DNA of 47,089 bases from Bacteroidales bacterium (GCA_012519815.1 JAAYPM010000110.1:1-47089), one strand, 5' to 3'; shown: positions 8,421 to 47,089, counted from the stretch's first letter. Numbers and translations are program-made. The notes: generated by a model not told the origin, from the sequence alone.

Positions 8421-10316
8421 TTATAGAAGATTTACAAAAAAATCATACAAACTTTTTGTATCAAGATGACACGATTTGTACAATTCTTCGGGCGTTCCAT
8501 GAGGCACAAACACATCGGGAATTCCAAGTCGTTTAATTGTGCCTGAGTATGCTTGTTGCGATGCATATTCAAGAACAGCAGAACCAAATCCGCCATTAAT
8601 AACGCCATCTTCAATCGTTACAATGATTGAAAAAGAATCAAGAATTTCTTGTAATAATTGTTCATCAAGTGGTTTGACAAAACGCATATTGTACCAAGCA
8701 AGTTGCACATTATGAGTTTGTTTAATTTGTTTTATTGCATCATTTGCTCTATTTCCAATAGGACCGACAGAAAGCACCGCTATACGTTGCCCTTGTTCCA
8801 TACATATTCCTTTTCCGAGCGATAATTCTTGTAAAGGAACTTTCCATGAAACATGTTCACCCTTACCGCGGGGATAGCGAATAACAAACGGTTTATTTGC
8901 ACGATATGCGGTGTACATAAGGTGTTGAAGTTCTAATTCATCAACAGGAGATGCAATAATAATGTTTGGAATAGCACGCATAAATGCCAAATCAAACACT
9001 CCGTGATGCGTAGCTCCGTCATGTCCAACAATACCTGCTCTGTCAAGACAAAAAATTACAGGTAACTGAGGCAGTGCGACATCGTGTATTACTTGGTCGT
9101 AGGCACGTTGCATAAAACTTGAATACACATTACAAAACGGTATTAATCCATCTTTTGCCATACCTGCCGAAAATGTTACCGCATGTTGTTCGGCGATACC
9201 TACGTCAAAAGCTCTGCCGGGCATTGCTTTCATAAGCATATCCATAGAACACCCCGAAGCCATAGCAGGAGTAACACCAACAATACGAGCATCTGCTTGT
9301 GCTAAATCAACAAGAGTAGCACCAAATACATCTTGATATTTAGGAGGAGTTTTTAGTGCATCATCATTTACTATTATTTTACCCGTAATTTTGTCAAATT
9401 TTCCCGGAGCATGCCATGTTGTTTGTGATTCTTCGGCGGGTTTAAAACCTTTACCTTTTTGTGTACGGACATGCAATAATTTTGGTCCCTGCATATCAAG
9501 TAAATCTTGAATGGTACGCACCAGATGAAACACATCATGTCCATCAACTGGACCAAAATACCGAAAATCAAGAGATTCAAACAGATTACTTTCTTTCAGC
9601 AACACCGCTTTTATACCATTTTCAACTTTTTGTGCAATAGCCAATGCGTTTGTGCCATAATTACTCAATCGCTTAAGCATATGCCACACCTCATCTTTAA
9701 ACTTATTATATGTTTTTGATGTTGTAATATCAAGAAGATATTGGTTTAACGCCCCAACATTGGCATCAATTGCCATATTATTATCGTTCAAAATAACCAA
9801 TATATTTGTTTTAGAAAAGCCCGCATGATTAAGCCCTTCAAAAGCCAAACCTCCTGTAAGAGAACCATCTCCAATTACCGCAACTATATGTCGGTCAAGT
9901 TCACCTTTTTGCTGTGCGGCAATTGCCATTCCTAAAGCAGCAGAAATAGAGGTTGATGAATGTCCCGCAATAAAAGCGTCATATTCACTTTCTTTTGGAT
10001 TAGGAAATCCAGAAATACCGCCAAATTTTCTATTTGTATGAAATTTTGTTCGTCTTTCCGTCAATATTTTATGTCCGTATGCTTGATGTCCAACATCCCA
10101 CACAATTCTGTCATAGGGTGTATTAAGCACATAATGCAACGCAACAGTAAGTTCAACCGTGCCTAACGAAGCACCAAAATGCCCAGGATTTTTACTGCTT
10201 TCATCAATAATAAATTCACGTAATTCGTTACACACTTGCCCAAGTTGTTCTATTCCAAGATTACGTAAATCAGCAGGATTATTTATATTTTCTAATAGCG
10301 AATTCAAAATTTTCAA
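8421..10316 (-). CDS. dxs: 1-deoxy-D-xylulose-5-phosphate synthase
   Basis: GHFGASLG, WDVGHQAY, GDGSLTGG...NDN thiamine motif, GIAEQHA and DRAG motifs. True start is probably TTG at 10316 or 10307, because a TACTTTTG -7 box lies at 10332-10339 inside the track's 5' extension. Confidence 0.95.
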   Translation of the reverse strand: MKILNSLLENINNPADLRNLGIEQLGQVCNELREFIIDESSKNPGHFGASLGTVELTVALHYVLNTPYDRIVWDVGHQAYGHKILTERRTKFHTNRKFGGISGFPNPKESEYDAFIAGHSSTSISAALGMAIAAQQKGELDRHIVAVIGDGSLTGGLAFEGLNHAGFSKTNILVILNDNNMAIDANVGALNQYLLDITTSKTYNKFKDEVWHMLKRLSNYGTNALAIAQKVENGIKAVLLKESNLFESLDFRYFGPVDGHDVFHLVRTIQDLLDMQGPKLLHVRTQKGKGFKPAEESQTTWHAPGKFDKITGKIIVNDDALKTPPKYQDVFGATLVDLAQADARIVGVTPAMASGCSMDMLMKAMPGRAFDVGIAEQHAVTFSAGMAKDGLIPFCNVYSSFMQRAYDQVIHDVALPQLPVIFCLDRAGIVGHDGATHHGVFDLAFMRAIPNIIIASPVDELELQHLMYTAYRANKPFVIRYPRGKGEHVSWKVPLQELSLGKGICMEQGQRIAVLSVGPIGNRANDAIKQIKQTHNVQLAWYNMRFVKPLDEQLLQEILDSFSIIVTIEDGVINGGFGSAVLEYASQQAYSGTIKRLGIPDVFVPHGTPEELYKSCHLDTKSLYDFFVNLL

Positions 10317-10559
10317 GCAAAAAACAAAGCACAAAAGTAACAAGAAAGTTTGTAAATAAGAGATTGTTTAAAAAAAGTTTTTATTTAAACCAATATGCAT
10401 AAAAAAGACTATGATATACGTCTATTATTTGCTATGATTCACCTTACGTTTTACATACAACATGTTAGTATCTTTTTTAAAAATTGACGATTTTTCCTAG
10501 CACACATTACATAAAGCAATGTAATTTTGTGTAATTTATATTAAATAAATCATACAACA

Positions 10560-11564
10560 ATGGCAAGAATACCAAGATTTTTACTTTTCGCATCATGTTT
10601 TGTTTTTATGTTAGGTTCATGTGTTTCTCAAAAGAAATACCAAACGCTCGAAACTAGCACACAGCTCACGCAAGACTCGTTACGTGTGGCACTTGCCAAC
10701 ATTCAAAAAGATATTTTTTCTGTTGAAGCTCGTAATAAAACATTAGAATCTCAGGTATTGCAATTACGTGCAGATAGCACTTCGAAAAATAGAATCATAA
10801 AAAATTTAGAGCTACAAGTTGCTGATTTAGAAGAGTTAAATAAAAACTTAGTAACCAAGCAATCGCGGCTTATTCAAGAAAATATGGCTGAGAATAAAAA
10901 AATTCTTGAAGAAATTCAAGCAACGCGTAGAAATATACAAATTCAAGAAGATGCACTTGATTCTATTCGTTTACATTTAGAAAAAGAACGCGAAGCACTT
11001 CAAAAAATCAGAACAGAGTTAGGCATTAAAAACGACGAAATACTTGTAAAAAATCTAAAAATTGCAGAAATGGAAGACCTTATTCGTCGTAAAGATTCTA
11101 TTACAAACGCACTTAGAACAAAAGTAAAAAGTGCATTAGTAGGTTTTGAAGGGCAAGGATTAACAATTGAAGAACGCGATGGTAAAATATACGTGCTACT
11201 TGACGAGGCTCTTTTATTTAGCGTTGGTAAAAGTGATGTTGCACCAAAAGGACAAGAAGCTTTGCAAAAACTTGCACAAGTGTTAGAACAAAATACCGAT
11301 ATCAATATTATGATTGAAGGGCATACCGACAATACAGGTGGAGCAAAACGCAATTGGGAATTAAGTGCAGAACGTGCACTTGCTATTTCGCAAATTCTCC
11401 TTACAAATTCAAAAATAGAAGGGTCTCGAATTACCGTTGCAGGGCGTGGACAATACAAACCAATATATACCGAAAACACTCCACAAGCACGTGCTCAAAA
11501 CAGACGAAGTGAAATTATACTCACTCCTGACTTAAAAGAATTATACGAGATAATTAATAATTAA
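10560..11564 (+). CDS. OmpA/MotB-family peptidoglycan-binding lipoprotein with long coiled coil
   Basis: Lipobox MLGS-C, heptad-rich middle, C-terminal LLFSVG...IEGHTD...NWELSAERA...NRRSEI. A -7 box TAATTTTG lies at 10522-10529. Confidence 0.88.
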   Translation: MARIPRFLLFASCFVFMLGSCVSQKKYQTLETSTQLTQDSLRVALANIQKDIFSVEARNKTLESQVLQLRADSTSKNRIIKNLELQVADLEELNKNLVTKQSRLIQENMAENKKILEEIQATRRNIQIQEDALDSIRLHLEKEREALQKIRTELGIKNDEILVKNLKIAEMEDLIRRKDSITNALRTKVKSALVGFEGQGLTIEERDGKIYVLLDEALLFSVGKSDVAPKGQEALQKLAQVLEQNTDINIMIEGHTDNTGGAKRNWELSAERALAISQILLTNSKIEGSRITVAGRGQYKPIYTENTPQARAQNRRSEIILTPDLKELYEIINN

Positions 11565-14605: not shown

Positions 14606-14707
14606 AATTTTTGTCAATATAATTAATAATTAATGCAAATATATAATTAAAGTGTTCATTTTAGAAAAATCAAAAAGCGAATCGAAAACCTTTTTTTATG
14701 ATATGTA

Positions 14708-15682
14708 TTATTTTTTGCGTGTGCAAATATAATCAATGAGAGAAACCAGAGCTTCTTGTGCCTCATTATGCGAAAATGTATATACTATTTGTTTTGCTTC
14801 GGAGCATAGTTCTTCAATTTTTGCTTCGGCGTATTCAATTCCATTATGTTGCATAATAAAATTCACAATTTCTTGAAGTTTTTTTGGATTGTTTTTATGT
14901 CCTTTTAAAAGCTTTTTTATGTGCAATTGTTCTTTTTTTGACACTTGTTTAAGCGCATGTAACAATGGGAGTGTTATTTTTTTCTCTTTTAAATCATTCC
15001 ATATAGGTTTTCCAATAACAGATGTTTTTGAATAATCCAATACATCATCTTTAATTTGAAATGCCACACCTAACAACAGGGCGATTTTCTTCAGTTTTTC
15101 CGCATCTTTTTCTTGTAAATTTCCTGTGGAATGTGCCCCAGAAAGCATAGCTGCTACAAATAAACTTGCAGTTTTTTTCTCAATAATTTGAAAATAAATA
15201 TCTTCAGAATTTGATACAAGTTTTGCTTTTTCAATTTGCAATAATTCGCCTTCGCTCATATCTTTAACCGCCGTAGAAATGATTTTTAGCAGTTCTATAT
15301 GATTTGTTTCAATAGCATGCAATAAGCCTTTTGCTAACAAATAATCGCCTACTAACACACTTATTTTATTTTTCCACAATGCATTTACCGAGAAAAAACC
15401 ACGACGTTTCATAGAATTATCCACAACATCGTCATGAAGTAATGTAGCGGTATGCATAAGTTCAATCATAAATGCAGCTGAATAGCTTGCTTCGGTAACA
15501 GAACCAATTAAACGAGCACTTAAAAAAACTAAACTTGGGCGAATTTGTTTCCCTTTTGTTTTTAAAATATACGATGTAATAAGCGATAGTAACGATTTTT
15601 TTGAAGAAAGTTCTTTTTTAAATCGAGCATCAAATTCTTGAATATCAGATTTTATAAAAGAAAGAAATAAGGGGGTATTCAT
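14708..15682 (-). CDS. Long-chain polyprenyl diphosphate synthase (IspB-like)
   Basis: GKQIRP, LLHDDVVD...RRG, GE.LQ, KTA and FQIKDD.LD motifs. Confidence 0.93.
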   Translation of the reverse strand: MNTPLFLSFIKSDIQEFDARFKKELSSKKSLLSLITSYILKTKGKQIRPSLVFLSARLIGSVTEASYSAAFMIELMHTATLLHDDVVDNSMKRRGFFSVNALWKNKISVLVGDYLLAKGLLHAIETNHIELLKIISTAVKDMSEGELLQIEKAKLVSNSEDIYFQIIEKKTASLFVAAMLSGAHSTGNLQEKDAEKLKKIALLLGVAFQIKDDVLDYSKTSVIGKPIWNDLKEKKITLPLLHALKQVSKKEQLHIKKLLKGHKNNPKKLQEIVNFIMQHNGIEYAEAKIEELCSEAKQIVYTFSHNEAQEALVSLIDYICTRKK

Positions 15683-38753: not shown

Positions 38754-39779
38754 ATGACAAATATATCTATTGGTGCTACTGTTCGGTATTTAAATGAAGT
38801 TGGCGGGGGAACAATTACCCGAATAATTAGTCCAACTATGGTAGAAATTCTTGATGAATCTGGATTTGAAATTCCTGTTCCTATTTCAGAATTACTTATT
38901 GTAAATCAGAAATCAGATACAGAAAAAGTAGAAATTGCAAAACCTCAAATCCCAGAACCAGAACCAATTACGTATATAGAAGGTAATAATCAATTATACA
39001 TAGCACTTGCGTTTGTTCCAACAACAAAACATAACGAACATTTTACTCTTTTTCTAATAAATGATTCAAATTATTGGATATCATATCTTTGTGCACAAAC
39101 AAAAGTAGAATCACATTCACAAAATATACTTGAAACAGGAACATTAGAACCAAACACAAAATTACAATTAACACAACTAACTCTTTTAGAATTGCATGAA
39201 ATTAAAACCATACATTTTCAAGCAATTATTTATAATACAGAAGATTACAAAGTAGAAAAACCAATTTCAGAAAAATATAATGTAGAACATACAAAATTTT
39301 ATAAATCTGGAATATTTCAAGAAAATATGTTTTTTAATGAAAATGCATATATTGTTGATTTACATAATGCCACACATAAAAAAATACAGGAATCTTTACA
39401 AAAACAAGATATTCAAAAACTCACATCACTCAAGCAATTAGGAGAAAAACGACCACGAATACAACAAAAACGTACCCCAAAAGAAGAAATACGAGAAGTA
39501 GATTTACATATACATGAATTAGTTGAAGATGAAAACCATATGAGTTCTGCCGAAAAACTTTCAGTGCAATTAGCCGCATTTGAAACAGCTCTTACGCAAG
39601 CAATACAAGATGGGATTCCTAAATTAGTATATATTCATGGGGTTGGAAATGGAATTCTTAAATCTAAAATTCGCTCAATTCTTGATAAAGACTATCCTCA
39701 ATTTTTTTATCAAGATGCCTCATTTCAAAGGTATAAATTTGGAGCAACATTAGTGTATTTAAAAAAAATACATTCATAA
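38754..39779 (+). CDS. DUF2027 and Smr/MutS2 domain protein
   Basis: IG..VRYLN.VGGG...GFEIP, LAFVP, L.NDSNY; C-terminal VDLHI..L...IHG.G.G.L...DA.F..Y..GAT. Confidence 0.88.
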   Translation: MTNISIGATVRYLNEVGGGTITRIISPTMVEILDESGFEIPVPISELLIVNQKSDTEKVEIAKPQIPEPEPITYIEGNNQLYIALAFVPTTKHNEHFTLFLINDSNYWISYLCAQTKVESHSQNILETGTLEPNTKLQLTQLTLLELHEIKTIHFQAIIYNTEDYKVEKPISEKYNVEHTKFYKSGIFQENMFFNENAYIVDLHNATHKKIQESLQKQDIQKLTSLKQLGEKRPRIQQKRTPKEEIREVDLHIHELVEDENHMSSAEKLSVQLAAFETALTQAIQDGIPKLVYIHGVGNGILKSKIRSILDKDYPQFFYQDASFQRYKFGATLVYLKKIHS

Positions 39780-39798
39780 CTATTTATATATCTGAATT

Positions 39799-40488
39799 AT
39801 GAATCAAAAATCTCAAAATCCAACTATCATTGTATTGCAATTAATAGATTCAATTTTAGAGCATAGCAATGCGGGAAATAAAATTCAAGCAACAAAACAT
39901 TGTGCTACATTACAATCAATACTCACTTCTTTTCCTCTTATTCTATGGGATAATCAAAGTATTTGGAAGTTAGCAAAAGTGTTTTTAATAATGTATCATT
40001 ATGATATATATGAACAAGAAGATGCAAATATTACCTTAATGCATGAAGCATATTTATTTGCAAATCGTTCAATAGATTTATTTGAACAAGCAACGCAAAA
40101 TTCTGAAACAGCACAAGAAGATTATTTTCAGGCATTGCGAACCCAAATACTTATTCTAAAAACAGGGGCTGATTGTTTTACACCGATTGTATCAGATTTA
40201 TATGCAAAAAAAACAGGTGTAATGTCAACGCAAGAAACGCAAATAGCCCAACAACTTTCAAACACCGCACTTCTTATAATGCAATATGCAGTATTAGACA
40301 AAATATCAGAACATTTTCCTGATTTTAATCAAGATGTATTTTTAGAAGATTTATGTGCGTCTATAGAAATTGAACATGCCGAAATATCAAAAGCATCATT
40401 AGTTCAGGCACAAAAAATTCATACACGCATGTTGTATGATATTAAGAAAAATTTTACACATAAATATTCCTTAGCTAAAAACACATAA
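39799..40488 (+). CDS. Hypothetical alpha-helical protein
   Basis: 229-aa ORF 19 nt downstream of the previous gene on the same strand; no motif recognised. Confidence 0.65.
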   Translation: MNQKSQNPTIIVLQLIDSILEHSNAGNKIQATKHCATLQSILTSFPLILWDNQSIWKLAKVFLIMYHYDIYEQEDANITLMHEAYLFANRSIDLFEQATQNSETAQEDYFQALRTQILILKTGADCFTPIVSDLYAKKTGVMSTQETQIAQQLSNTALLIMQYAVLDKISEHFPDFNQDVFLEDLCASIEIEHAEISKASLVQAQKIHTRMLYDIKKNFTHKYSLAKNT

Positions 40489-40583: not shown

Positions 40584-41048
40584 ATGAATAGAATATTAGC
40601 AACAGAAAAAAACAACATATTGGCATTAGTGGCACGTGTAGCACTTGGCATAGTTGTACTTCCGCACGGAGCTCAAAAATTATTGGGCTGGTTTGGTGGA
40701 TATGGATTTCAGGGAACCATGGAATTTATGACACAAGGTCTTCATTTACCTTATATTATAGCATTATTGGTGATTCTTGTTGAATTTTTCGGAGCATTAT
40801 TTCTCATTTTCGGCTTTCTTACCAGAATATCGGCATTGGGAATATTAGGAACATTTACTGGAATAGTAATAACTGCTCATTTAAAAGCGGGATTTTTTAT
40901 GAATTGGTATGGACAAGCTGATGCAACAGAAGGATTAGAATATTTCATTCTATTATTTGGATTAGCAATTATCTCTCTTTTGGCAGGTGGTGGAAAATTT
41001 AGTGTAGATACGCTGCTCTTTAATAAAAAATCAAATGATGAAAAATAA
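40584..41048 (+). CDS. DoxX-family membrane protein
   Basis: R..LG.V..PHGAQKL.GWFGG.G, E..G...L..G..TR, G.EY and G.GKFS.D motifs. Confidence 0.92.
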   Translation: MNRILATEKNNILALVARVALGIVVLPHGAQKLLGWFGGYGFQGTMEFMTQGLHLPYIIALLVILVEFFGALFLIFGFLTRISALGILGTFTGIVITAHLKAGFFMNWYGQADATEGLEYFILLFGLAIISLLAGGGKFSVDTLLFNKKSNDEK

Positions 41049-41125
41049 TTGTATCCGAAATTGATTTTTAGATAGAAAAATATTGGTTGAAAAATCACAC
41101 TTTTTTCTTACTGAATACTTTTAAA

Positions 41126-41151
41126 CTGTCCAGTTTTTGGGGGAACTTACA
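41126..41151. mobile_element. Probable orphan IS3-family-like terminal inverted repeat (remnant)
   Basis: GC-rich 26-mer in an AT-rich spacer. The minus strand reads TGTAAGTTCCCCCAAAAACTGGACAG, resembling 5'-TG...CCCC-AAAA..TGGACA ends of IS3-family elements. No transposase nearby. Confidence 0.5.
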
Positions 41152-41166
41152 CAACCAATCGTAGTA

Positions 41167-42477
41167 TTATATCGTTCCTAAATATAATTCAAAAACAGAT
41201 ATGTTCAAAAGAAGTGTATAATTCTCCAAGTTTAATTCTAATTCAGCATTTATTTTTTTATTTTCAGAAATAAGATAGTCTGTAATTGATAATTTTCCAG
41301 ATTTGTACTGCTTGGTTCTCATTTCATAAATTTCAGTATATAGATTAACCTCTTCATTTCGTGAATGTATTTTCTTTTTTTGCACTTCTATTGTTTCAAT
41401 TAAAATTTCAATATCTCGATATATCTTGTTTTTTATAATTTGTTTATCTAAAATCGAATTCTCAAGTTTGATTCCGTTTTCAAATATTTTTTGTTTAATA
41501 GAATGTCTGCTATATAGAGGAATTACTAACGAAAAACCTACTTGATATGCAAAATTATCTTTGAATTGATTATTAAAGTTATAATTTATTCCTCCTGATG
41601 AACTAACTGCAACATCTGAATAAGAAGAGTATAAAGACGCATTTGTTGTTAGGTAGGGATAATAATGACTTTTTATTATTGAAAGATTTTCTTTATGAAA
41701 TATTGAATCTTGTATTGCACGTTGAATTTGTGGAGAAGTTTCAAGTATTTTGTTACAATAATCTTTTATATTTAAATCATTCATTGTTAGCTTTGTATTG
41801 TCTTTTATTATATCAATTTCAAAAATTGAATCTAAAGGAAAATTCATTGCCTTTTTGAGTAAGACATTTGCTTTTTTAATATTTATTTCAGTTTGTAACA
41901 AATTGCTATGTACACTTTTATAACGAGCTTTTATTTCATAAAGGTCAATTACAGATATTTTGCCTTGCGAAACCATTTCTTGAATTATCTGTATTTGTTT
42001 TGAGATATTTTCAAGTGAATATAGAATTATTCGATTATTTTCAATTGCAAGTAGGAGTTCATAATATGCATATATTACTTCTCTTTTTATATCTTGCTCT
42101 ATAATTTCTAATTCTGTTATACTCATTTCATTCAATAAAATATTTTGCTTTATTTTCAAAATAGTTTGCATTCCATTAAATATAACTAATTGGGAATTTA
42201 AAGAATAATTTCCTATTTGATACGAAGAATAATTTCCATTATTTTCTGAAAAATCTTTTGCTTTATTATATTGGTGCCCTGTTTCAATATTTATTGAGGG
42301 TAATAGGTTATATTTTGAATATATTACATTCTGTTGAGAAAGCACAATATAATTATGTGATTTTTTTAGTTCAATTCTATTTTGCAAAGCATAATCAATA
42401 CATTTTTGCAGATTGAAATTTTGACATTGTGCTACAATATTTATGAAAGCGAAAGAAAAAATAAATAATAATCTCAT
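41167..42477 (-). CDS. TolC-family outer-membrane efflux protein
   Basis: L..CI.YAL.N, LP.I, IFNG, Y..LL.A, YP.L, G.SL.IPLY and Y..G..S..D motifs; start overlaps the ABC gene stop. Confidence 0.88.
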   Translation of the reverse strand: MRLLFIFSFAFINIVAQCQNFNLQKCIDYALQNRIELKKSHNYIVLSQQNVIYSKYNLLPSINIETGHQYNKAKDFSENNGNYSSYQIGNYSLNSQLVIFNGMQTILKIKQNILLNEMSITELEIIEQDIKREVIYAYYELLLAIENNRIILYSLENISKQIQIIQEMVSQGKISVIDLYEIKARYKSVHSNLLQTEINIKKANVLLKKAMNFPLDSIFEIDIIKDNTKLTMNDLNIKDYCNKILETSPQIQRAIQDSIFHKENLSIIKSHYYPYLTTNASLYSSYSDVAVSSSGGINYNFNNQFKDNFAYQVGFSLVIPLYSRHSIKQKIFENGIKLENSILDKQIIKNKIYRDIEILIETIEVQKKKIHSRNEEVNLYTEIYEMRTKQYKSGKLSITDYLISENKKINAELELNLENYTLLLNISVFELYLGTI

Positions 42478-44651
42478 ATTGTTCCTTCTTTATGATCATT
42501 CATAAATACAGGTAACTGTTTTTGCCACATTTCCCAATATTTACCTTTTGATTTATACAGTTTTGAATGAGAGCCATGTTCAAGAAGATTTCCATTTTCT
42601 AATACAACAATCTCATCAGCATTTACAACTGTACTTAATCGGTGTGCAATTATAATAATTGTTTTTCCTTCATTTCGTAAATTATCAATTGTTGTCTGAA
42701 CAAATTGTTCTGATTCTGAATCTAATGCAGATGTTGCTTCGTCAAGTATAAGTATTTCAGGATTTTTGTATAATGCCCTTGCAATAGCCAAACGTTGTTT
42801 TTGACCTCCCGACAATGATGCTCCATTTTCTCCTATATACGTATTGAATCCAGCAGGTAATTTTTCTATAAAATCAATCATTCCTAGTTGAGTACAGATA
42901 GAAACAATTCTTTCCATATCGGGATTAAACTCACCTAATGCAATATTTTCAACAACATTGCCTGCAAACAGATTTAATTGTTGTGGTACACTTGCAACCA
43001 TATTTCTCAAACTTACATTATCGAAACATTCAATATTATGATTACCGACTACAATTTTTCCCGTTTTTAACGGGTATAATTTTTGCAATAGTGAAACTAT
43101 TGTTGTTTTTCCCGAACCACTTTCTCCAATTATTGCAGTCATCTTTGATTTTTGAATTACTAATGAAAAATTTTCAAAAACATCTACTCGACTACCATAA
43201 CTAAACGAAATATTTTCAAACCTGATATCGCCAATCATTTCTTTAGAAAAAGTAATTTTATTTTCATCGTTTTCTCTTTCTAAATCCATAATTTCAAATA
43301 AACGGTCTGCAGCAATCAGTGCATTTTGAATGATTTTATTTAATCCTATTAGTTGGGTTACCGGAGCAGTAAAGTAGCCAATAATTGCATAAAATGAAAG
43401 CAATTCTCCTGGAGTAATAGTGTTATCAACAACGTAATATGTACCTATCCATAAAATAATAATAGTAAAAACACGACTTAAAAATTCTGAGGAGTGATGA
43501 GAAAATAAAGCATTAAGAGATGATTTATAAATTGACTTCAAAAGTTCTATAAACCTCGTTTCTGTTTTAATATTTGCAAATGGTTCTATACCAAATTGCT
43601 TTATTGTTTTTACTGAGTTTAATGATTCAACCAACTGACTTTCAAGCTCTGCGGCATGCTCCATCAATTTTCGTTCACGTTTCTTATTTAATCTGTTTGT
43701 TACAACATATATTATTGAGTAGAGTGGTATAATAATTAACAGAATCAATGCAAGTTTCCAACTGTATATAAACATTAATGTAAATGAAAATATCACAATA
43801 AATACATTAACAATTAAAGTAATAATAGAATCGTTAATAAATGTTCTGATTTTTGCTGCGTCATTTATTCGAGAAATAATTTCACCAACACGCATTGTGT
43901 CAAAAAAACGTTGAGGAAGCTTTAAGAGGTGTTTGTAATATCCTAATATAAGCTGTGCGTCCATTCTTTGCCCCGTTTTGAGCATAAAAACATCTTTTGT
44001 TGCACCTATAAATAATTGTAATAATAAAATTACAATCATTATAACTCCCATTAAATTAAGCAGATTAGTGTTTTTATTTACAAATACATTATCAACAAGT
44101 TTTTGAATAAAAATTGATGTTGAAAGTCCGAGAATAGTATAAATACAAGCTCCAAACAACGATTGTACAACTACACTTTGATGTGGTTTTAAAAGATACC
44201 AAAATCGCTTATATATTGATGTCGTGTCGTCTTTTTCTATAAAATTTTCATTCGGAACAAGTAACACTAATACATTTGTCCATATTTTAGTAAACTCTTC
44301 TAAGGATTTTGTATGTAAATGTCCGTCTGCAGGATCCATATATTGAATATTCCCGTTTTTAACCGAATATAAAACAACATAATGAGCTAATTTTTCATCT
44401 ATTACAACATGTACAATTGCAGGAAGAGGTATTTTTAACAATGCCTCAACATTACCCTTTACTCCTTTTGCCGAAAATCCTAATTTTTCGGCAGCTTGAA
44501 TTAGTCCAAGTATATTAGTCCCCTTTTGGTCTGTTCCTGCATACTGACGAATGCGTGCTACGGGAATTTTTAAATTATAATAATTTGCAACCGAAGCTAA
44601 ACAAGCTGCACCACAATCAGTAATATCGCGTTGTTTTATTTTTATACTCAT
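42474..44651 (-). CDS. Peptidase-containing ABC transporter (C39, PCAT)
   Basis: QRDITDCGAACL (catalytic Cys), HYVV, DPA; transmembrane domain; GESGSGKT, LSGGQ, ILILDE and IAHR motifs. Confidence 0.96.
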   Translation of the reverse strand: MSIKIKQRDITDCGAACLASVANYYNLKIPVARIRQYAGTDQKGTNILGLIQAAEKLGFSAKGVKGNVEALLKIPLPAIVHVVIDEKLAHYVVLYSVKNGNIQYMDPADGHLHTKSLEEFTKIWTNVLVLLVPNENFIEKDDTTSIYKRFWYLLKPHQSVVVQSLFGACIYTILGLSTSIFIQKLVDNVFVNKNTNLLNLMGVIMIVILLLQLFIGATKDVFMLKTGQRMDAQLILGYYKHLLKLPQRFFDTMRVGEIISRINDAAKIRTFINDSIITLIVNVFIVIFSFTLMFIYSWKLALILLIIIPLYSIIYVVTNRLNKKRERKLMEHAAELESQLVESLNSVKTIKQFGIEPFANIKTETRFIELLKSIYKSSLNALFSHHSSEFLSRVFTIIILWIGTYYVVDNTITPGELLSFYAIIGYFTAPVTQLIGLNKIIQNALIAADRLFEIMDLERENDENKITFSKEMIGDIRFENISFSYGSRVDVFENFSLVIQKSKMTAIIGESGSGKTTIVSLLQKLYPLKTGKIVVGNHNIECFDNVSLRNMVASVPQQLNLFAGNVVENIALGEFNPDMERIVSICTQLGMIDFIEKLPAGFNTYIGENGASLSGGQKQRLAIARALYKNPEILILDEATSALDSESEQFVQTTIDNLRNEGKTIIIIAHRLSTVVNADEIVVLENGNLLEHGSHSKLYKSKGKYWEMWQKQLPVFMNDHKEGTI

Positions 44652-45788
44652 TTACTTTGATACAATTTTGGGATTCATCCAATCATCAACTTTGTCAAAC
44701 AGCAATTGCCAAAGTGTTCGTTCAATAAGATAAAAACGAGCAGTAATAGTCATTCCTTTTTGAAAATCGCCTTCAAATCCATTTTTAAGTTTTAAATTTT
44801 TGCTTATTAAAGCACATCGAATTGGAAAAATTGCAGATTCTTGTAGTGTTTGTATGTCTGGTGAAATTTCTAAAACTCTTCCCTTCGCTAAACCCCATTG
44901 GTTATAATCATATGCATCAAATTGAAACATAACATCTTGATATTTTCTAATAAATCCGATATCAGATGGTTGTACATAACATTCTACAATTAAGCTATCA
45001 TTGTTTGAAATATAAGCTATTGTTTGTCCTGGGGTTACAAAACTACCGATACCTATCCCTGCACACTGAACAATATTACCTGAAAACGGAGCAGTAATTA
45101 TATAATTTTTCTTTTCTTCTTCAAGTTGTGATATTTGAGAATACAACTCATTGTTTTCAATTTCTAATCGGTTTTTTTCAGTTTCAAGATTTGCTTTAAA
45201 TTGTAATTTTTGTATTGAAAGTTTTTCAGATGCAGATTCATAGTGATTTTTTACTTGCAGATATTCTTGCTTAGGAGTTATGTTTTTTTTATATAAATTT
45301 TCAGAAACTCGCAATTCTGTTTTTAAATATGCTATATTTTTAGACATCTCTTCAACTATTGAATTATGATATTTCAATTCTTGTAAATATTTTGAAGAAT
45401 GTATTATTATATTATCTAATAAAATCGACTGTATATCGGTTATAAAAATTTGATTTTCAGCGACTTTTTCTTGTAGTCTTGTAATTTGTTCATTAAGTTT
45501 AGCACTATTAAAAGTGAGCAATGTATCACCTTTTTGAACACTTGCATTTTCTTTTACACTTATTTTTTCTACTTGTGCATAAACAACTGGTTGTAATGGC
45601 GTATTTTCAAAAGAGCTTTTTACTATTCCACGAGCTTGTGTTGTAATATTTACTGAAATAAAAGGCAATAAGAAACAAGCAATACATACTATAGAAATTA
45701 CTGTAATATATATAGTTTTAGTTTTTACTTTATTACATATGTGATGTAATTCTACTGAATTATTGATAATTTCGGGAGGGAAAAGCAT
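44652..45788 (-). CDS. HlyD-family membrane fusion protein
   Basis: Single N-terminal TM segment, V.E...V.KGD.L, coiled coil, I.AP.SG, DIG.I...Q.V....DAY.Y..WG and GM...A motifs. Confidence 0.93.
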   Translation of the reverse strand: MLFPPEIINNSVELHHICNKVKTKTIYITVISIVCIACFLLPFISVNITTQARGIVKSSFENTPLQPVVYAQVEKISVKENASVQKGDTLLTFNSAKLNEQITRLQEKVAENQIFITDIQSILLDNIIIHSSKYLQELKYHNSIVEEMSKNIAYLKTELRVSENLYKKNITPKQEYLQVKNHYESASEKLSIQKLQFKANLETEKNRLEIENNELYSQISQLEEEKKNYIITAPFSGNIVQCAGIGIGSFVTPGQTIAYISNNDSLIVECYVQPSDIGFIRKYQDVMFQFDAYDYNQWGLAKGRVLEISPDIQTLQESAIFPIRCALISKNLKLKNGFEGDFQKGMTITARFYLIERTLWQLLFDKVDDWMNPKIVSK

Positions 45789-46816
45789 TATTCAATAGCG
45801 TTAAAAAATTGGATTAAGAAAAAATGATATGTGTAGAGATTATGTATATCAACCGAATTTTGATTATCTCTAAAACTATGAATTTTACCAAAACCAATAG
45901 GAGAAATAGGGCTTATATGTTCAGAGGCGCTAAACTTAAAATTATCGGTAAAGTTAATTACAGGCTTTGCTTCTTTTTTTACTGTAAAATAACTTTTCTG
46001 CGGAACAAAAGCTCCCAAAACATTAACCATAAAAGAAATTGAAAAATCTTTTATAAAACTCTGTCCCTTAAACGAATAAAAATCTGCCAAGGCTCCTTTG
46101 GGTAATGTGTTTTTATGAGTTTTAATATCGTGTGTACTACCAATAGAATCTGCTATAGAAATAAGAATTGGATCGCTTACATTTTCAGTAATTGATATTC
46201 CTTTACTATCTTTAGCACCAACCATGTCTATATTTATGGCAAAATATACACGTTTCCATTCTTCTTTTGTTAAACCAGAAATATGTCTGCGAACACCTCT
46301 TAAACCATATTCTTCTTGGGCAGTAAACAAAAATCTATACGTATATTTTGTTGGTTTATCTTTCAAATGGTTTAACAAAGATAGATTAAGTACTACACCT
46401 GTTCCATTATCATAATACCCATCAGACAAATATATATGTGAAAGCAAAATATCTGCTCCACCATTAAAAATGGTATTAATTGTTGTTACTATATTGTTGC
46501 TTATTTTATCATAATGACTAACGATATAAATTATAGAATCACTTTTTCCTTTTTTTTCTACAATTATATTTTTATATAAACCTAACCAATCAACAGATTC
46601 TGTTATAAGTGAAATTTCATTTGAAGTGTCAATGAGAGATTTTATATATTTATATCTTTTTTGATTTCCCCCTTTACTTAAATTGTGTAAGTGATTAGAA
46701 TAAAAGCACGTATCATATATTTCATGAAAATGATTTTGAGAAAATATATCATATGTAAATGAAAGAATAAAAAAGAGAATAAAAATATATTTGTTTTTCA
46801 TAAAATTAAGAATCAT
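45788..46816 (-). CDS. Secreted M28-family zinc metallopeptidase
   Basis: Signal peptide MKNKYIFILFFILSFTYDIFS|Q (start 46801 or 46816); SHYD, DNGTG, AQEEYGLRG, NIDMVG and IHS..D ligand motifs. Confidence 0.85.
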   Translation of the reverse strand: MILNFMKNKYIFILFFILSFTYDIFSQNHFHEIYDTCFYSNHLHNLSKGGNQKRYKYIKSLIDTSNEISLITESVDWLGLYKNIIVEKKGKSDSIIYIVSHYDKISNNIVTTINTIFNGGADILLSHIYLSDGYYDNGTGVVLNLSLLNHLKDKPTKYTYRFLFTAQEEYGLRGVRRHISGLTKEEWKRVYFAINIDMVGAKDSKGISITENVSDPILISIADSIGSTHDIKTHKNTLPKGALADFYSFKGQSFIKDFSISFMVNVLGAFVPQKSYFTVKKEAKPVINFTDNFKFSASEHISPISPIGFGKIHSFRDNQNSVDIHNLYTYHFFLIQFFNAIE

Positions 46817-46822
46817 AGTTTT

Positions 46823-46861
46823 TTATACAGAGACTATTTATAAAAAACAGTCTCTGTATAA
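46823..46861. repeat. Perfect 13-bp inverted repeat (intergenic stem-loop) between precursor and M28 gene
   Basis: TTATACAGAGACT (46823-46835), 13-nt loop, AGTCTCTGTATAA (46849-46861). Confidence 0.85.
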
Positions 46862-46865
46862 GTAT

Positions 46866-47012
46866 TTATTTTTTTCTACCCCATATAATATAAGCGACAG
46901 CAGCAATTACAAATGAACCGCAAATAACAACAGTTAATCCGCCATTTATCTCTTTTGTTTCTTTTTCATTAAGTTCTTCAAGACCTAATTCTTTTACATC
47001 AAAATTTTTCAT
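46866..47012 (-). CDS. Double-glycine leader peptide precursor (bacteriocin-like), 48 aa
   Basis: Below the ORF-track size cutoff. Translation MKNFDVKELGLEELNEKETKEINGG|LTVVICGSFVIAAVAYIIWGRKK*; the EL.EKE..EINGG leader is typical of PCAT substrates, and the gene lies upstream of HlyD/PCAT/TolC on the same strand. Confidence 0.88.
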   Translation of the reverse strand: MKNFDVKELGLEELNEKETKEINGGLTVVICGSFVIAAVAYIIWGRKK

Positions 47013-47080
47013 TTTAAATAATTTTAATTTATTAATAATAAGTTAATTAGTGATAGTGTTGGCCATTACTTTTCACGCAT

Positions 47081-47088
47081 CAAACATA
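47081..47088 (-). promoter_or_regulatory. Candidate -7 box for the peptide operon
   Basis: TATGTTTG on the minus strand, 68 nt upstream of the precursor ATG; the -33 element would fall outside the window. Confidence 0.4.
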
Positions 47089-47089
47089 C

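Follow-up and report, generated by a model that had tools for sequence, protein, structure and literature searches.

A double-glycine peptide export operon from a Bacteroidales bacterium with a rare, predicted exported M28-family peptidase in its accessory slot

Peptides with a double-glycine leader are secreted by systems in which a peptidase-containing ABC transporter (PCAT), an HlyD-family adaptor, and a TolC-family channel cut the precursor after the glycine pair and export the product across both membranes in one step. Here, we describe an operon of this kind at one end of a 47,089-nucleotide stretch of DNA from a Bacteroidales bacterium (JAAYPM010000110.1 of assembly GCA_012519815.1, referred to as a whole as the window), in which the gene of an M28-family zinc peptidase stands between those of a double-glycine precursor and the HlyD protein. 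The closest described systems, the enterobacterial class II microcins of the MccV type, combine a double-glycine precursor with the PCAT CvaB, the HlyD-type adaptor CvaA, and TolC, and the window has the same four components together with an unmodified-looking peptide. Such systems are reported to be widespread, and their verified immunity proteins are small inner-membrane proteins encoded beside the microcin (PMC12219008, main text). The window differs in that a predicted exported M28 peptidase takes the place of the immunity gene, in its much shorter core peptide (23 residues) with one hydrophobic helix, and in belonging to another phylum; the words "M28," "aminopeptidase," and "metallopeptidase" have no mention in the main text of PMC12219008, to which this count is limited.

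Within the same phylum, the Bacteroidetocin loci of gut Bacteroidales likewise place a toxin with a double-glycine leader beside a PCAT. Their regions comprise four genes, encoding a protein with five transmembrane segments, the toxin, a thiol oxidoreductase, and the PCAT, and the producers are not immune (PMC6671954, main text); HlyD, TolC, and aminopeptidase each have no occurrence in the main text of that paper. The window was rejected as a Bacteroidetocin region, as its operon has neither a thiol oxidoreductase nor a gene for the five-segment protein and its peptide has a single Cys. Locus-encoded metalloproteases next to a peptide are also found in class II bacteriocin loci with CPBP/Abi proteins (CAAX-protease, Rce1-like; PF02517), and in two relatives of our locus (L035 and L041) a CPBP gene occupies the same slot. 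However, CPBP proteins are polytopic intramembrane enzymes, whereas the M28 protein of the window, which shares no homology with them, has a signal peptide and the fold of a soluble-domain exopeptidase; it has no PF02517 match and was rejected as a CPBP/Abi protease, the genomic slot being all that the two have in common.

Among the peptides that are ribosomally synthesized and then modified posttranslationally (RiPPs), the proteases AplP (M1), PttP1/P2 (M16), BotP (M17), and MfuP (M61) are cluster-encoded zinc peptidases acting after or beside leader removal, and MfuP co-occurs with a PCAT (PMC10885120, main text). None of these is an M28 enzyme and all belong to modified-peptide pathways, whereas no modifying enzyme was seen in the operon of the window; "M28" is not mentioned in the main text of this leader-protease review. 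A search of full-text literature, with supplementary neighborhood tables outside its scope, returned no paper on a pairing of M28 with a double-glycine peptide and PCAT or on M28 bacteriocin immunity, in agreement with an earlier description of the window from its sequence (the sequence-only reading), which had not recognized the arrangement as a characterized system. The locus is an ordinary double-glycine export system whose accessory slot holds a rare and distinctive M28 enzyme, predicted to be exported, and the function that we infer for this enzyme is weighed below.

The Export System, Its Precursor, and the M28 Enzyme

The five co-oriented genes named in the sequence-only reading were borne out at the same coordinates by ORF calling and by Pfam and NCBIfam searches (table 1), and so were the tight junctions that it listed: base 45788 is common to the M28 and HlyD genes, the HlyD and PCAT genes abut at 44652/44651, and the PCAT and TolC genes overlap by 4 nt (42474–42477). 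Profile matches also support its assignment of the base system as a PCAT/HlyD/TolC exporter of a double-glycine peptide. The PCAT matches Peptidase_C39 (PF03412, 1.2e-34, residues 5–135), ABC_membrane (PF00664), and ABC_tran (PF00005), and reaches 529 bits against the NCBIfam model TIGR01193 ("peptide cleavage/export ABC transporter"), exceeding its curated cut-off (523.85); the C39 Cys is visible in its N-terminal stretch QRDITDCGAACL, with the motif DCGAACL. The adaptor matches HlyD_D23 (PF16576), HlyD_3 (PF13437), and TIGR01843 type_I_hlyD (7e-41), and the channel protein matches OEP (PF02321, 1.6e-39) over two stretches and TIGR01844 (2.3e-25). In most of the 20 sister PCAT–HlyD loci that we compared, the gene immediately upstream of the PCAT is an ortholog of the HlyD gene, and in two of them (L041 and L042) a TolC gene comes after the PCAT. 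With leader, C39-bearing PCAT, HlyD, and TolC all present, the backbone can on sequence grounds be classed as a class II microcin-like double-glycine type I secretion system.

The precursor is predicted to consist of a 25-residue double-glycine leader, MKNFDVKELGLEELNEKETKEINGG, which ends in NGG, and a 23-residue hydrophobic core, LTVVICGSFVIAAVAYIIWGRKK. The core (GRAVY 1.41; best 19-mer 2.38) has one helix-length hydrophobic segment followed by Trp and a basic tail, and contains a single Cys and few Ser or Thr. The precursor matches no Pfam or NCBIfam model. With a profile made from five leaders, it is recovered at E = 1.4e-13; among the M28 loci this leader profile otherwise matches only at the corresponding position of four further M28-bearing loci, with no match near the M28 copies that lack export genes; because the profile recovers the peptide and homologous leaders occur at the same position elsewhere, we regard the precursor as a real gene. 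The leader family is also common in the sister transporter loci, where it precedes many short, hydrophobic, single-helix-like cores, often in adjacent pairs. Three of the cores, those of the window, L015, and L016, are homologous and have ...AAV..(Y)IIW with a variable basic tail in common; the core of L017 is unrelated to them. The four peptides directly upstream of an M28 gene have no Pro at core positions 2–3, and their cores begin with L, S, W, and R; the suggestion that a core starting with Leu would suit an M28 enzyme preferring Leu therefore fails, as the first core residue is not conserved. Look-alikes in the ESM Atlas, which serve as leads only (scores ≤0.90), include clusters of class IIb lactobin A/cerein 7B, of ComC (0.88), and of Bacteriocin_IIc members unrelated to Bacteroidetocins.

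The M28 protein matches Peptidase_M28 (PF04389) at 4.5e-16 (59.6 bits; cut-off 21.3). A word-indexed search returned 50 relatives, nearly all of 270–385 aa and 43–81% identical, and an exhaustive profile search of 1.84 billion representatives gave 3095 proteins at E ≤ 1e-3, only 39 of them at E ≤ 1e-30; matches weaker than these 39 cover the generic M28 core only. No fused form was seen among the 39 subfamily representatives, and none is longer than 446 aa. The residues H101, D103, D136, E168, E169, D197, and H313 are invariant in all 26 aligned subfamily sequences, and in an hhalign comparison with 15 canonical M28 proteins (probability 99.9) the motifs HYD, YDNGTG, EEYGLRG, NIDM, and IHSxxD align motif for motif; these intact di-zinc motifs suggest that the protein is catalytically competent. 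The subfamily thus has the fold and catalytic motifs of the canonical M28 aminopeptidases (YwaD/BSAP of B. subtilis, AAP of Vibrio/Aeromonas, SGAP of S. griseus) and of the M28-fold glutaminyl cyclases, but carries two conserved inserts (residues ~105–127 and ~250–279) with invariant residues that are absent from canonical M28 enzymes. An AlphaFold model (pLDDT 78, pTM 0.79) has low confidence confined to the first insert, and its best Foldseek matches are the di-zinc aminopeptidases 6hc6, 1qq9, and 1amp (BSAP/YwaD, SGAP, and AAP), each with probability 1.00, with the M28-fold glutaminyl cyclases ranking after them; the matches to this fold have E ~1e-11 to 1e-13 and TM ~0.5–0.6. Identity to solved structures is below 20%, and the best solved relative by sequence is YwaD. 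Action as a glutaminyl cyclase on the linked peptides was rejected, as no core starts with Gln or Glu. A complex prediction of the mature enzyme with the 48-aa precursor scored 0.00, which counts neither for nor against an interaction.

All 26 subfamily members have a hydrophobic, signal-like N-terminal segment, with a small residue followed by Gln in 24 of them, and none of the 26 has a lipobox-like Cys; in the window protein the N-terminus resembles a Sec signal peptide, with ...FS/Q at the predicted cut. A small residue before Gln is the pattern of the Bacteroidota Q-rule for proteins that are exported by Sec and cleaved by signal peptidase I (PMC10653852, in part). The M28 domain extends to the last residue, leaving no separate C-terminal sorting domain. 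Given the signal peptide, the lack of a lipobox, and the lack of an extra C-terminal domain, the enzyme is most likely Sec-exported and periplasmic; the term "secreted" of the earlier description is too strong for a protein better placed in the periplasm.

Recurrence of the Pairing and the Accessory Slot of Sister Loci

To assess whether the M28 gene belongs to the operon, we consider nine independent loci of the subfamily with some flanking DNA, eight of them with upstream DNA (L017 and L018, 99.3% identical, are counted as one, and L019 is uninformative upstream). A peptide of the same double-glycine family lies directly upstream of the M28 gene in four of the eight: the window, L015 (81% M28 identity), L016 (49%), and L017. 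An HlyD gene follows the M28 gene in the window, L015, and L016, and a remnant of the HlyD N-terminus does so in L017/L018; a PCAT is present downstream in the window and in L016, the cassette of which has no TolC gene. A strong hairpin is found 3' of the precursor gene in all four linked loci, followed by a T-run in L015; in the window it lies in the 49-nt gap between the peptide and M28 genes, and it may act as a partial terminator or a transcript stabilizer that sets the ratio of precursor to machinery. The subfamily is very rare: it occurs in 4 of 401 genomes sampled in the order, in only the window's own genome in the class sample and likewise in the phylum sample (401 genomes each), as one true ortholog in 40 close relatives, and in one of eight genomes of the family around Saccharicrinis. 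No further M28 loci were found in a first single-protein scan of genome contigs or in a scan of viral contigs.

In a tree of the M28 proteins (MAFFT and FastTree), the window, L015, L016, L017/L018, and a further homolog, P0005, fall in three subclades, the Saccharicrinis copy is nested among linked members, and the copies of genomes G082 and G027, both unlinked, form the deepest branches. The M28 gene is not a chance neighbor but a co-inherited part of the cassette, and its pairing with the peptide is recurrent and old, though not obligatory. The pairing, for which the sequence-only reading had proposed a search of Bacteroidota genomes, does recur, at 49–81% M28 identity; of the outcome that this reading named as contrary to its proposal, close M28 homologs without linkage to such loci, only a part is seen, in the unlinked copies discussed below.

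Two further observations concern the border of the HlyD gene. In L018 (1268–1520) and L017 (1364–1555), the ORF after the M28 gene joins an HlyD N-terminus to the tail of an HTH_11 protein and is followed by another double-glycine peptide; this hybrid ORF marks a deletion in which the HlyD, PCAT, and HTH genes were lost. In P0005, residues 1–47 comprise an HlyD N-terminus (29 of 47 residues identical to the HlyD protein of L016, E = 4e-16) placed in frame before the M28 signal peptide (the first 31 residues), a fusion that reflects either recombination at the HlyD border or a chimera of gene calling or assembly.

Of 341 genomes sampled from the order, 24, including that of the window, have close PCAT orthologs (44–75% identity), and 20 of these loci are the sister loci compared here. 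ORF clustering over 25 loci showed as recurrent modules the PCAT (22 loci), HlyD (21), the HTH_11 protein (11), M28 (5), TolC (4), and two small membrane families (3 each). None of the 20 sister loci has an M28 gene. Instead, seven have Pfam-verified metalloproteases beside the peptide or regulator, namely Rce1-like/CPBP genes (PF02517) in L034, L035, L037, L041, L045, and L050, and two DUF3267 "putative zincin" genes in L039; the L049 gene clusters by blastp with the CPBP genes of L037 and L045 and has no Pfam match of its own. The CPBP gene stands exactly between the double-glycine peptide(s) and HlyD in L035 and L041, which is the position of M28, and the complete M28 cassettes (the window and L016) have no CPBP gene. 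The view that M28 sits in place of a usual accessory gene is therefore upheld, in the sense that this slot in sister loci holds CPBP/Rce1-like or other putative metalloproteases. In L046 (11949–13178), an ORF of 409 aa, which has an HEEGH motif, a start resembling a signal peptide, and no Pfam match, lies between double-glycine peptides and HlyD, and from this motif may represent a further protease family in the slot.

The PCAT and HlyD trees place the window as sister to the CPBP locus L034 (support 0.995 and 0.963, respectively) and L016 as sister to the DUF3267 locus L039 (1.0 and 0.961). Sister transporters thus differ in their accessory protease, and each of the two M28 cassettes has a closer relative than the other. 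Together with the recombination scars at the HlyD border, these trees point to a swappable module of cargo plus protease on a conserved export backbone.

Several features of the sister loci lie outside this comparison. The HTH_11 protein (100–123 aa; e.g., L016:9236–9607, L037:10198–10539, and L034:11806–12120) usually lies just 5' of the double-glycine peptide. In 10 of its 11 occurrences its C-terminal part has a leader-like ...x-I/M-x-G-G/A followed by a short hydrophobic tail, with a weak leader-profile match in L037 (E = 0.63), and the protein might act as a regulator and also be a substrate for cleavage by the C39 domain. The closest transporter relative of the window, L034, has a Radical_SAM plus SPASM gene (10219–11505) between its PCAT and HTH_11 genes, and some cassettes of its clade are probably modified-peptide clusters. 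In L016, a TraB/PrgY/GumN gene (14659–15531; PF01963, 1e-57) directly follows the PCAT.

Possible Functions of the M28 Enzyme

The M28 enzyme probably acts on the peptide of its own operon. We tentatively favor, with somewhat less than even confidence, that it serves self-protection by degrading the producer's own peptide when this re-enters or leaks. The C39 domain of the PCAT would cleave the precursor after Gly25, and the 23-residue core, a hydrophobic single helix with a basic tail, would be expelled through the PCAT–HlyD–TolC tunnel, bypassing the periplasm. The M28 enzyme, in the variable slot held in sister cassettes by CPBP/Rce1-like, DUF3267, or HExxH metalloproteases, would attack the free N-terminus of any core reaching the producer's periplasm by re-entry or mis-secretion, and would destroy it before insertion into the inner membrane, an enzymatic self-protection in place of a membrane immunity protein. 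Unlike Q-rule proteins, the core would be open to an aminopeptidase, because its alpha-amino group is free and neither position 2 nor position 3 is Pro, and self-protection is favored because a periplasmic enzyme should meet mainly re-entering or leaking peptide if the TolC tunnel bypasses the periplasm. Immunity has been reported for some of the CAAX/CPBP proteases encoded in bacteriocin loci (PMC9298176, in part).

Several points weigh against this reading. The CAAX protease SilX, likewise from a bacteriocin locus, gave no immunity and seems to act in the processing of a signal peptide (PMC9298176, in part), so the CPBP analogy does not discriminate between immunity and processing; and Bacteroidetocin loci function without any immunity gene (PMC6671954, main text). 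Four copies of the enzyme are unlinked, in Saccharicrinis (L013, on the same contig as G257), G082 (L033), G027 (L002, where the flanks amount to ~400 nt of intergenic DNA upstream and none downstream), and Ekhidna (L014, frameshifted); their available flanks contain no double-glycine peptide, HlyD, or PCAT gene, and the enzyme can thus exist without the cassette. It should be noted that the sample with context is small, four linked and four unlinked loci, that the upstream DNA of the window is missing and its closest transporter relative, L034, carries a radical-SAM/SPASM gene, and that the periplasmic location is predicted from sequence alone, with release in vesicles or into the medium also possible.

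The same linkage evidence would fit a second maturation step, unlikely in our judgment, in which M28 trims N-terminal residue(s) or the basic C-terminal tail after double-glycine cleavage, as in the aminopeptidase trimming of class III/IV lanthipeptides. Removal of the leader in two steps and trimming by aminopeptidases are established for M1 and M16 enzymes, and a PCAT and an M61 protease are found together in one lanthipeptide cluster (PMC10885120, main text); moreover, the three homologous cores share ...A(Y)xIW ahead of their variable basic tails, and the peptide of L016, a cassette without TolC, might cross the periplasm. In the window, however, the TolC gene overlaps the PCAT, so that export should bypass the periplasm, the expected site of an enzyme with a signal peptide only. 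Nor is any pro-sequence conserved after the glycines, to judge from the differing first residues of the cores; the unrelated core of L017 argues against a core-specific maturase, and the sister loci, with similar hydrophobic cores, manage without M28. Were the peptide a pheromone-like autoinducer, which we consider rather improbable, M28 could degrade it and so limit self-stimulation, much as PrgY/TraB-family proteins dampen endogenous pheromone in enterococcal plasmid systems. Small DNA-binding genes do lie directly 5' of the peptide in L015 (LytTR, PF04397, 9e-12) and L016 (HTH_11, PF08279, 1.5e-6), the HTH_11 family recurs in 11 of the 25 loci, and the L016 cassette is followed by the TraB/PrgY/GumN gene; the home genome has an orphan gene for a 107-aa LytTR-only protein (C15:24716–25039), 52% identical to that of L015, which could be a trans-acting regulator of the operon, and the ComC-containing Atlas cluster offers a lead in the same direction. 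Such regulators may, however, just control a toxin operon, and no M28-linked locus has a histidine kinase or receptor gene; the core, a membrane-helix-like stretch with a basic tail (23–29 residues), looks more membrane-active, and the adjacent peptide pairs of sister loci recall two-peptide bacteriocins.

The unlinked copies bear more directly on whether M28 is a passenger, a general periplasmic or nutritional aminopeptidase placed in a recombination-prone spot with no specific relation to the peptide. Half of the eight loci with context are unlinked and have unrelated neighbors (a MacB/FtsX permease, a methyltransferase, and a CDF transporter), the two deepest branches of the M28 tree are among them, and the scars at the HlyD border mark a plastic site. 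This is nevertheless quite unlikely, given that four independent loci, with identities as low as 49%, have the gene in the same position between the double-glycine peptide and the start of HlyD, that in the window it is translationally coupled, that repeated chance adjacency of so rare a subfamily to one kind of locus is not to be expected, and that other protease families occupy the slot in sister loci. Upstream of the peptide the contig runs on for 77 nt, and modifying enzymes just past its end would make the operon the tail of a RiPP cluster of known class, with M28 as its protease; the Radical_SAM plus SPASM gene next to the PCAT of L034 speaks for this. We hold it to be very unlikely: the 9.6 kb upstream of the peptide in L016 contain only the HTH_11 gene and then divergent genes resembling sugar-utilization genes, the 1.2 kb upstream in L015 contain the LytTR gene and a 167-aa ORF of no known kind, neither region has a modifying enzyme, and the core offers one Cys and few Ser/Thr. 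The sole home-genome homolog of the L034 radical-SAM gene (contig C34) lies beside a dnaA-like gene, without double-glycine peptides.

On a broader scale, it is possible, if somewhat doubtful, that the order has a hypervariable module of a peptide and its dedicated metalloprotease, in which at least four or five nonhomologous families (CPBP, DUF3267 zincin, the HExxH protein, TraB/PrgY, and M28) alternate and are swapped by recombination between the conserved sequence coding for the leader and the 5' end of HlyD. If so, M28 would be the first soluble periplasmic exopeptidase to act as a bacteriocin immunity factor, with the producer protected by N-terminal degradation of its own unblocked peptide and its other exported proteins shielded by the pyroglutamate of the Q-rule. 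How producers of small hydrophobic bacteriocins protect themselves, and what protease-family "immunity" genes contribute, is poorly understood, and a soluble, easily assayed aminopeptidase in the slot of polytopic membrane proteases would make the immunity question testable in vitro. A further outcome is the definition of a rare M28 subfamily, which has conserved inserts of its own and a likely peptide substrate, and the analysis indicates a modular, recombining cassette of cargo plus protease in anaerobic-digester bacteria.

Locus, Contig Edge, and Occurrence

The coordinates of the operon and its associated features are given in table 1. The ORF call found no ORF of at least 30 aa between or beside the five genes (the sequence ending at 47089), and accordingly no small membrane immunity gene adjoining the peptide up to this position; nor did ORF calling and Pfam searches give a modifying enzyme in 41167–47089. 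The statement that no such genes lie among the five thus holds, as no ORF of this size fits between them.

Table 1. Features of the double-glycine export operon (window coordinates)
Feature	Position	Strand	Size and basis
GG-leader precursor gene	46866–47012	−	48 aa; ORF call and leader-profile match
M28-family zinc peptidase gene (rare subfamily, predicted exported)	45788–46816	−	342 aa; PF04389
HlyD-family periplasmic adaptor (membrane fusion protein)	44652–45788	−	378 aa; PF16576, PF13437, TIGR01843
Peptidase-containing ABC transporter (PCAT; C39 domain, transmembrane domain, and nucleotide-binding domain)	42474–44651	−	725 aa; PF03412, PF00664, PF00005, TIGR01193
TolC-family outer-membrane channel	41167–42477	−	436 aa; PF02321 OEP, TIGR01844
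Stem-loop between precursor and M28 genes (17-bp stem)	46823–46861	−	RNAfold −22.1 kcal/mol
77-nt region 5' of the peptide gene, contig end; probable promoter/5' region	47013–47089	−	

Contig C54 of a 2.26-Mb genome in 146 contigs (33% G+C) makes up the whole window, so that the assembly holds no sequence past 47089, the inspection of which the sequence-only reading had proposed. In the home genome the peptide occurs once, as does an M28 of this type, the PCAT is the only C39 transporter, and no contig overlaps with the window; a search of this genome for the missing upstream part gave no HTH_11 homolog and placed the C34 radical-SAM and C15 LytTR genes away from contig ends next to double-glycine peptides. 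An independent metagenome assembly (run X2) has a 138-nt unitig that covers 46970–47089 and 18 nt beyond the window at a depth of 21.3, ~2.2 times that of the 9.9-kb main contig (9.65), which ends at 46999 inside the leader-coding region. This suggests a repeat of the promoter and the start of the leader, which might belong to a second precursor gene; such a repeat would account for the contig break at the window end. On the minus strand, TATGTTTG at 47088–47081 fits TAnnTTTG, which we take to be the −7 consensus of the Bacteroidota; a sigma-70 promoter and terminator scan, which is not suited to the host phylum, gave 47 sites, with 42.7 expected.

Near-identical copies of the 5.9-kb locus (≥94% of sampled words) were found in 17 DNA runs from ten studies, comprising anaerobic-digester, biogas, sludge, and landfill metagenomes, one of which may be the source of the window. 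Three metatranscriptome runs contained 6–7% of the sampled words of the locus, with RNA contigs at 44592–44824 and 45028–45254 (depth 2–3, one run) and at 41167–41656 (two runs), which reach parts of HlyD and the 3' end of TolC and for which carry-over of DNA is possible; in these three runs none covers the peptide or M28 gene, from which we draw no conclusion.

The operon has a G+C content of 25–31% (41001–47000), against 31–40% over most of the contig, and this, together with the patchy distribution, fits horizontal acquisition. Its downstream neighbors are all on the plus strand: a gene for a DUF2027 and Smr-domain protein (38754–39779), one for a 229-aa protein without a Pfam family (39799–40488), and a DoxX gene (40584–41048) that is convergent with the TolC gene.

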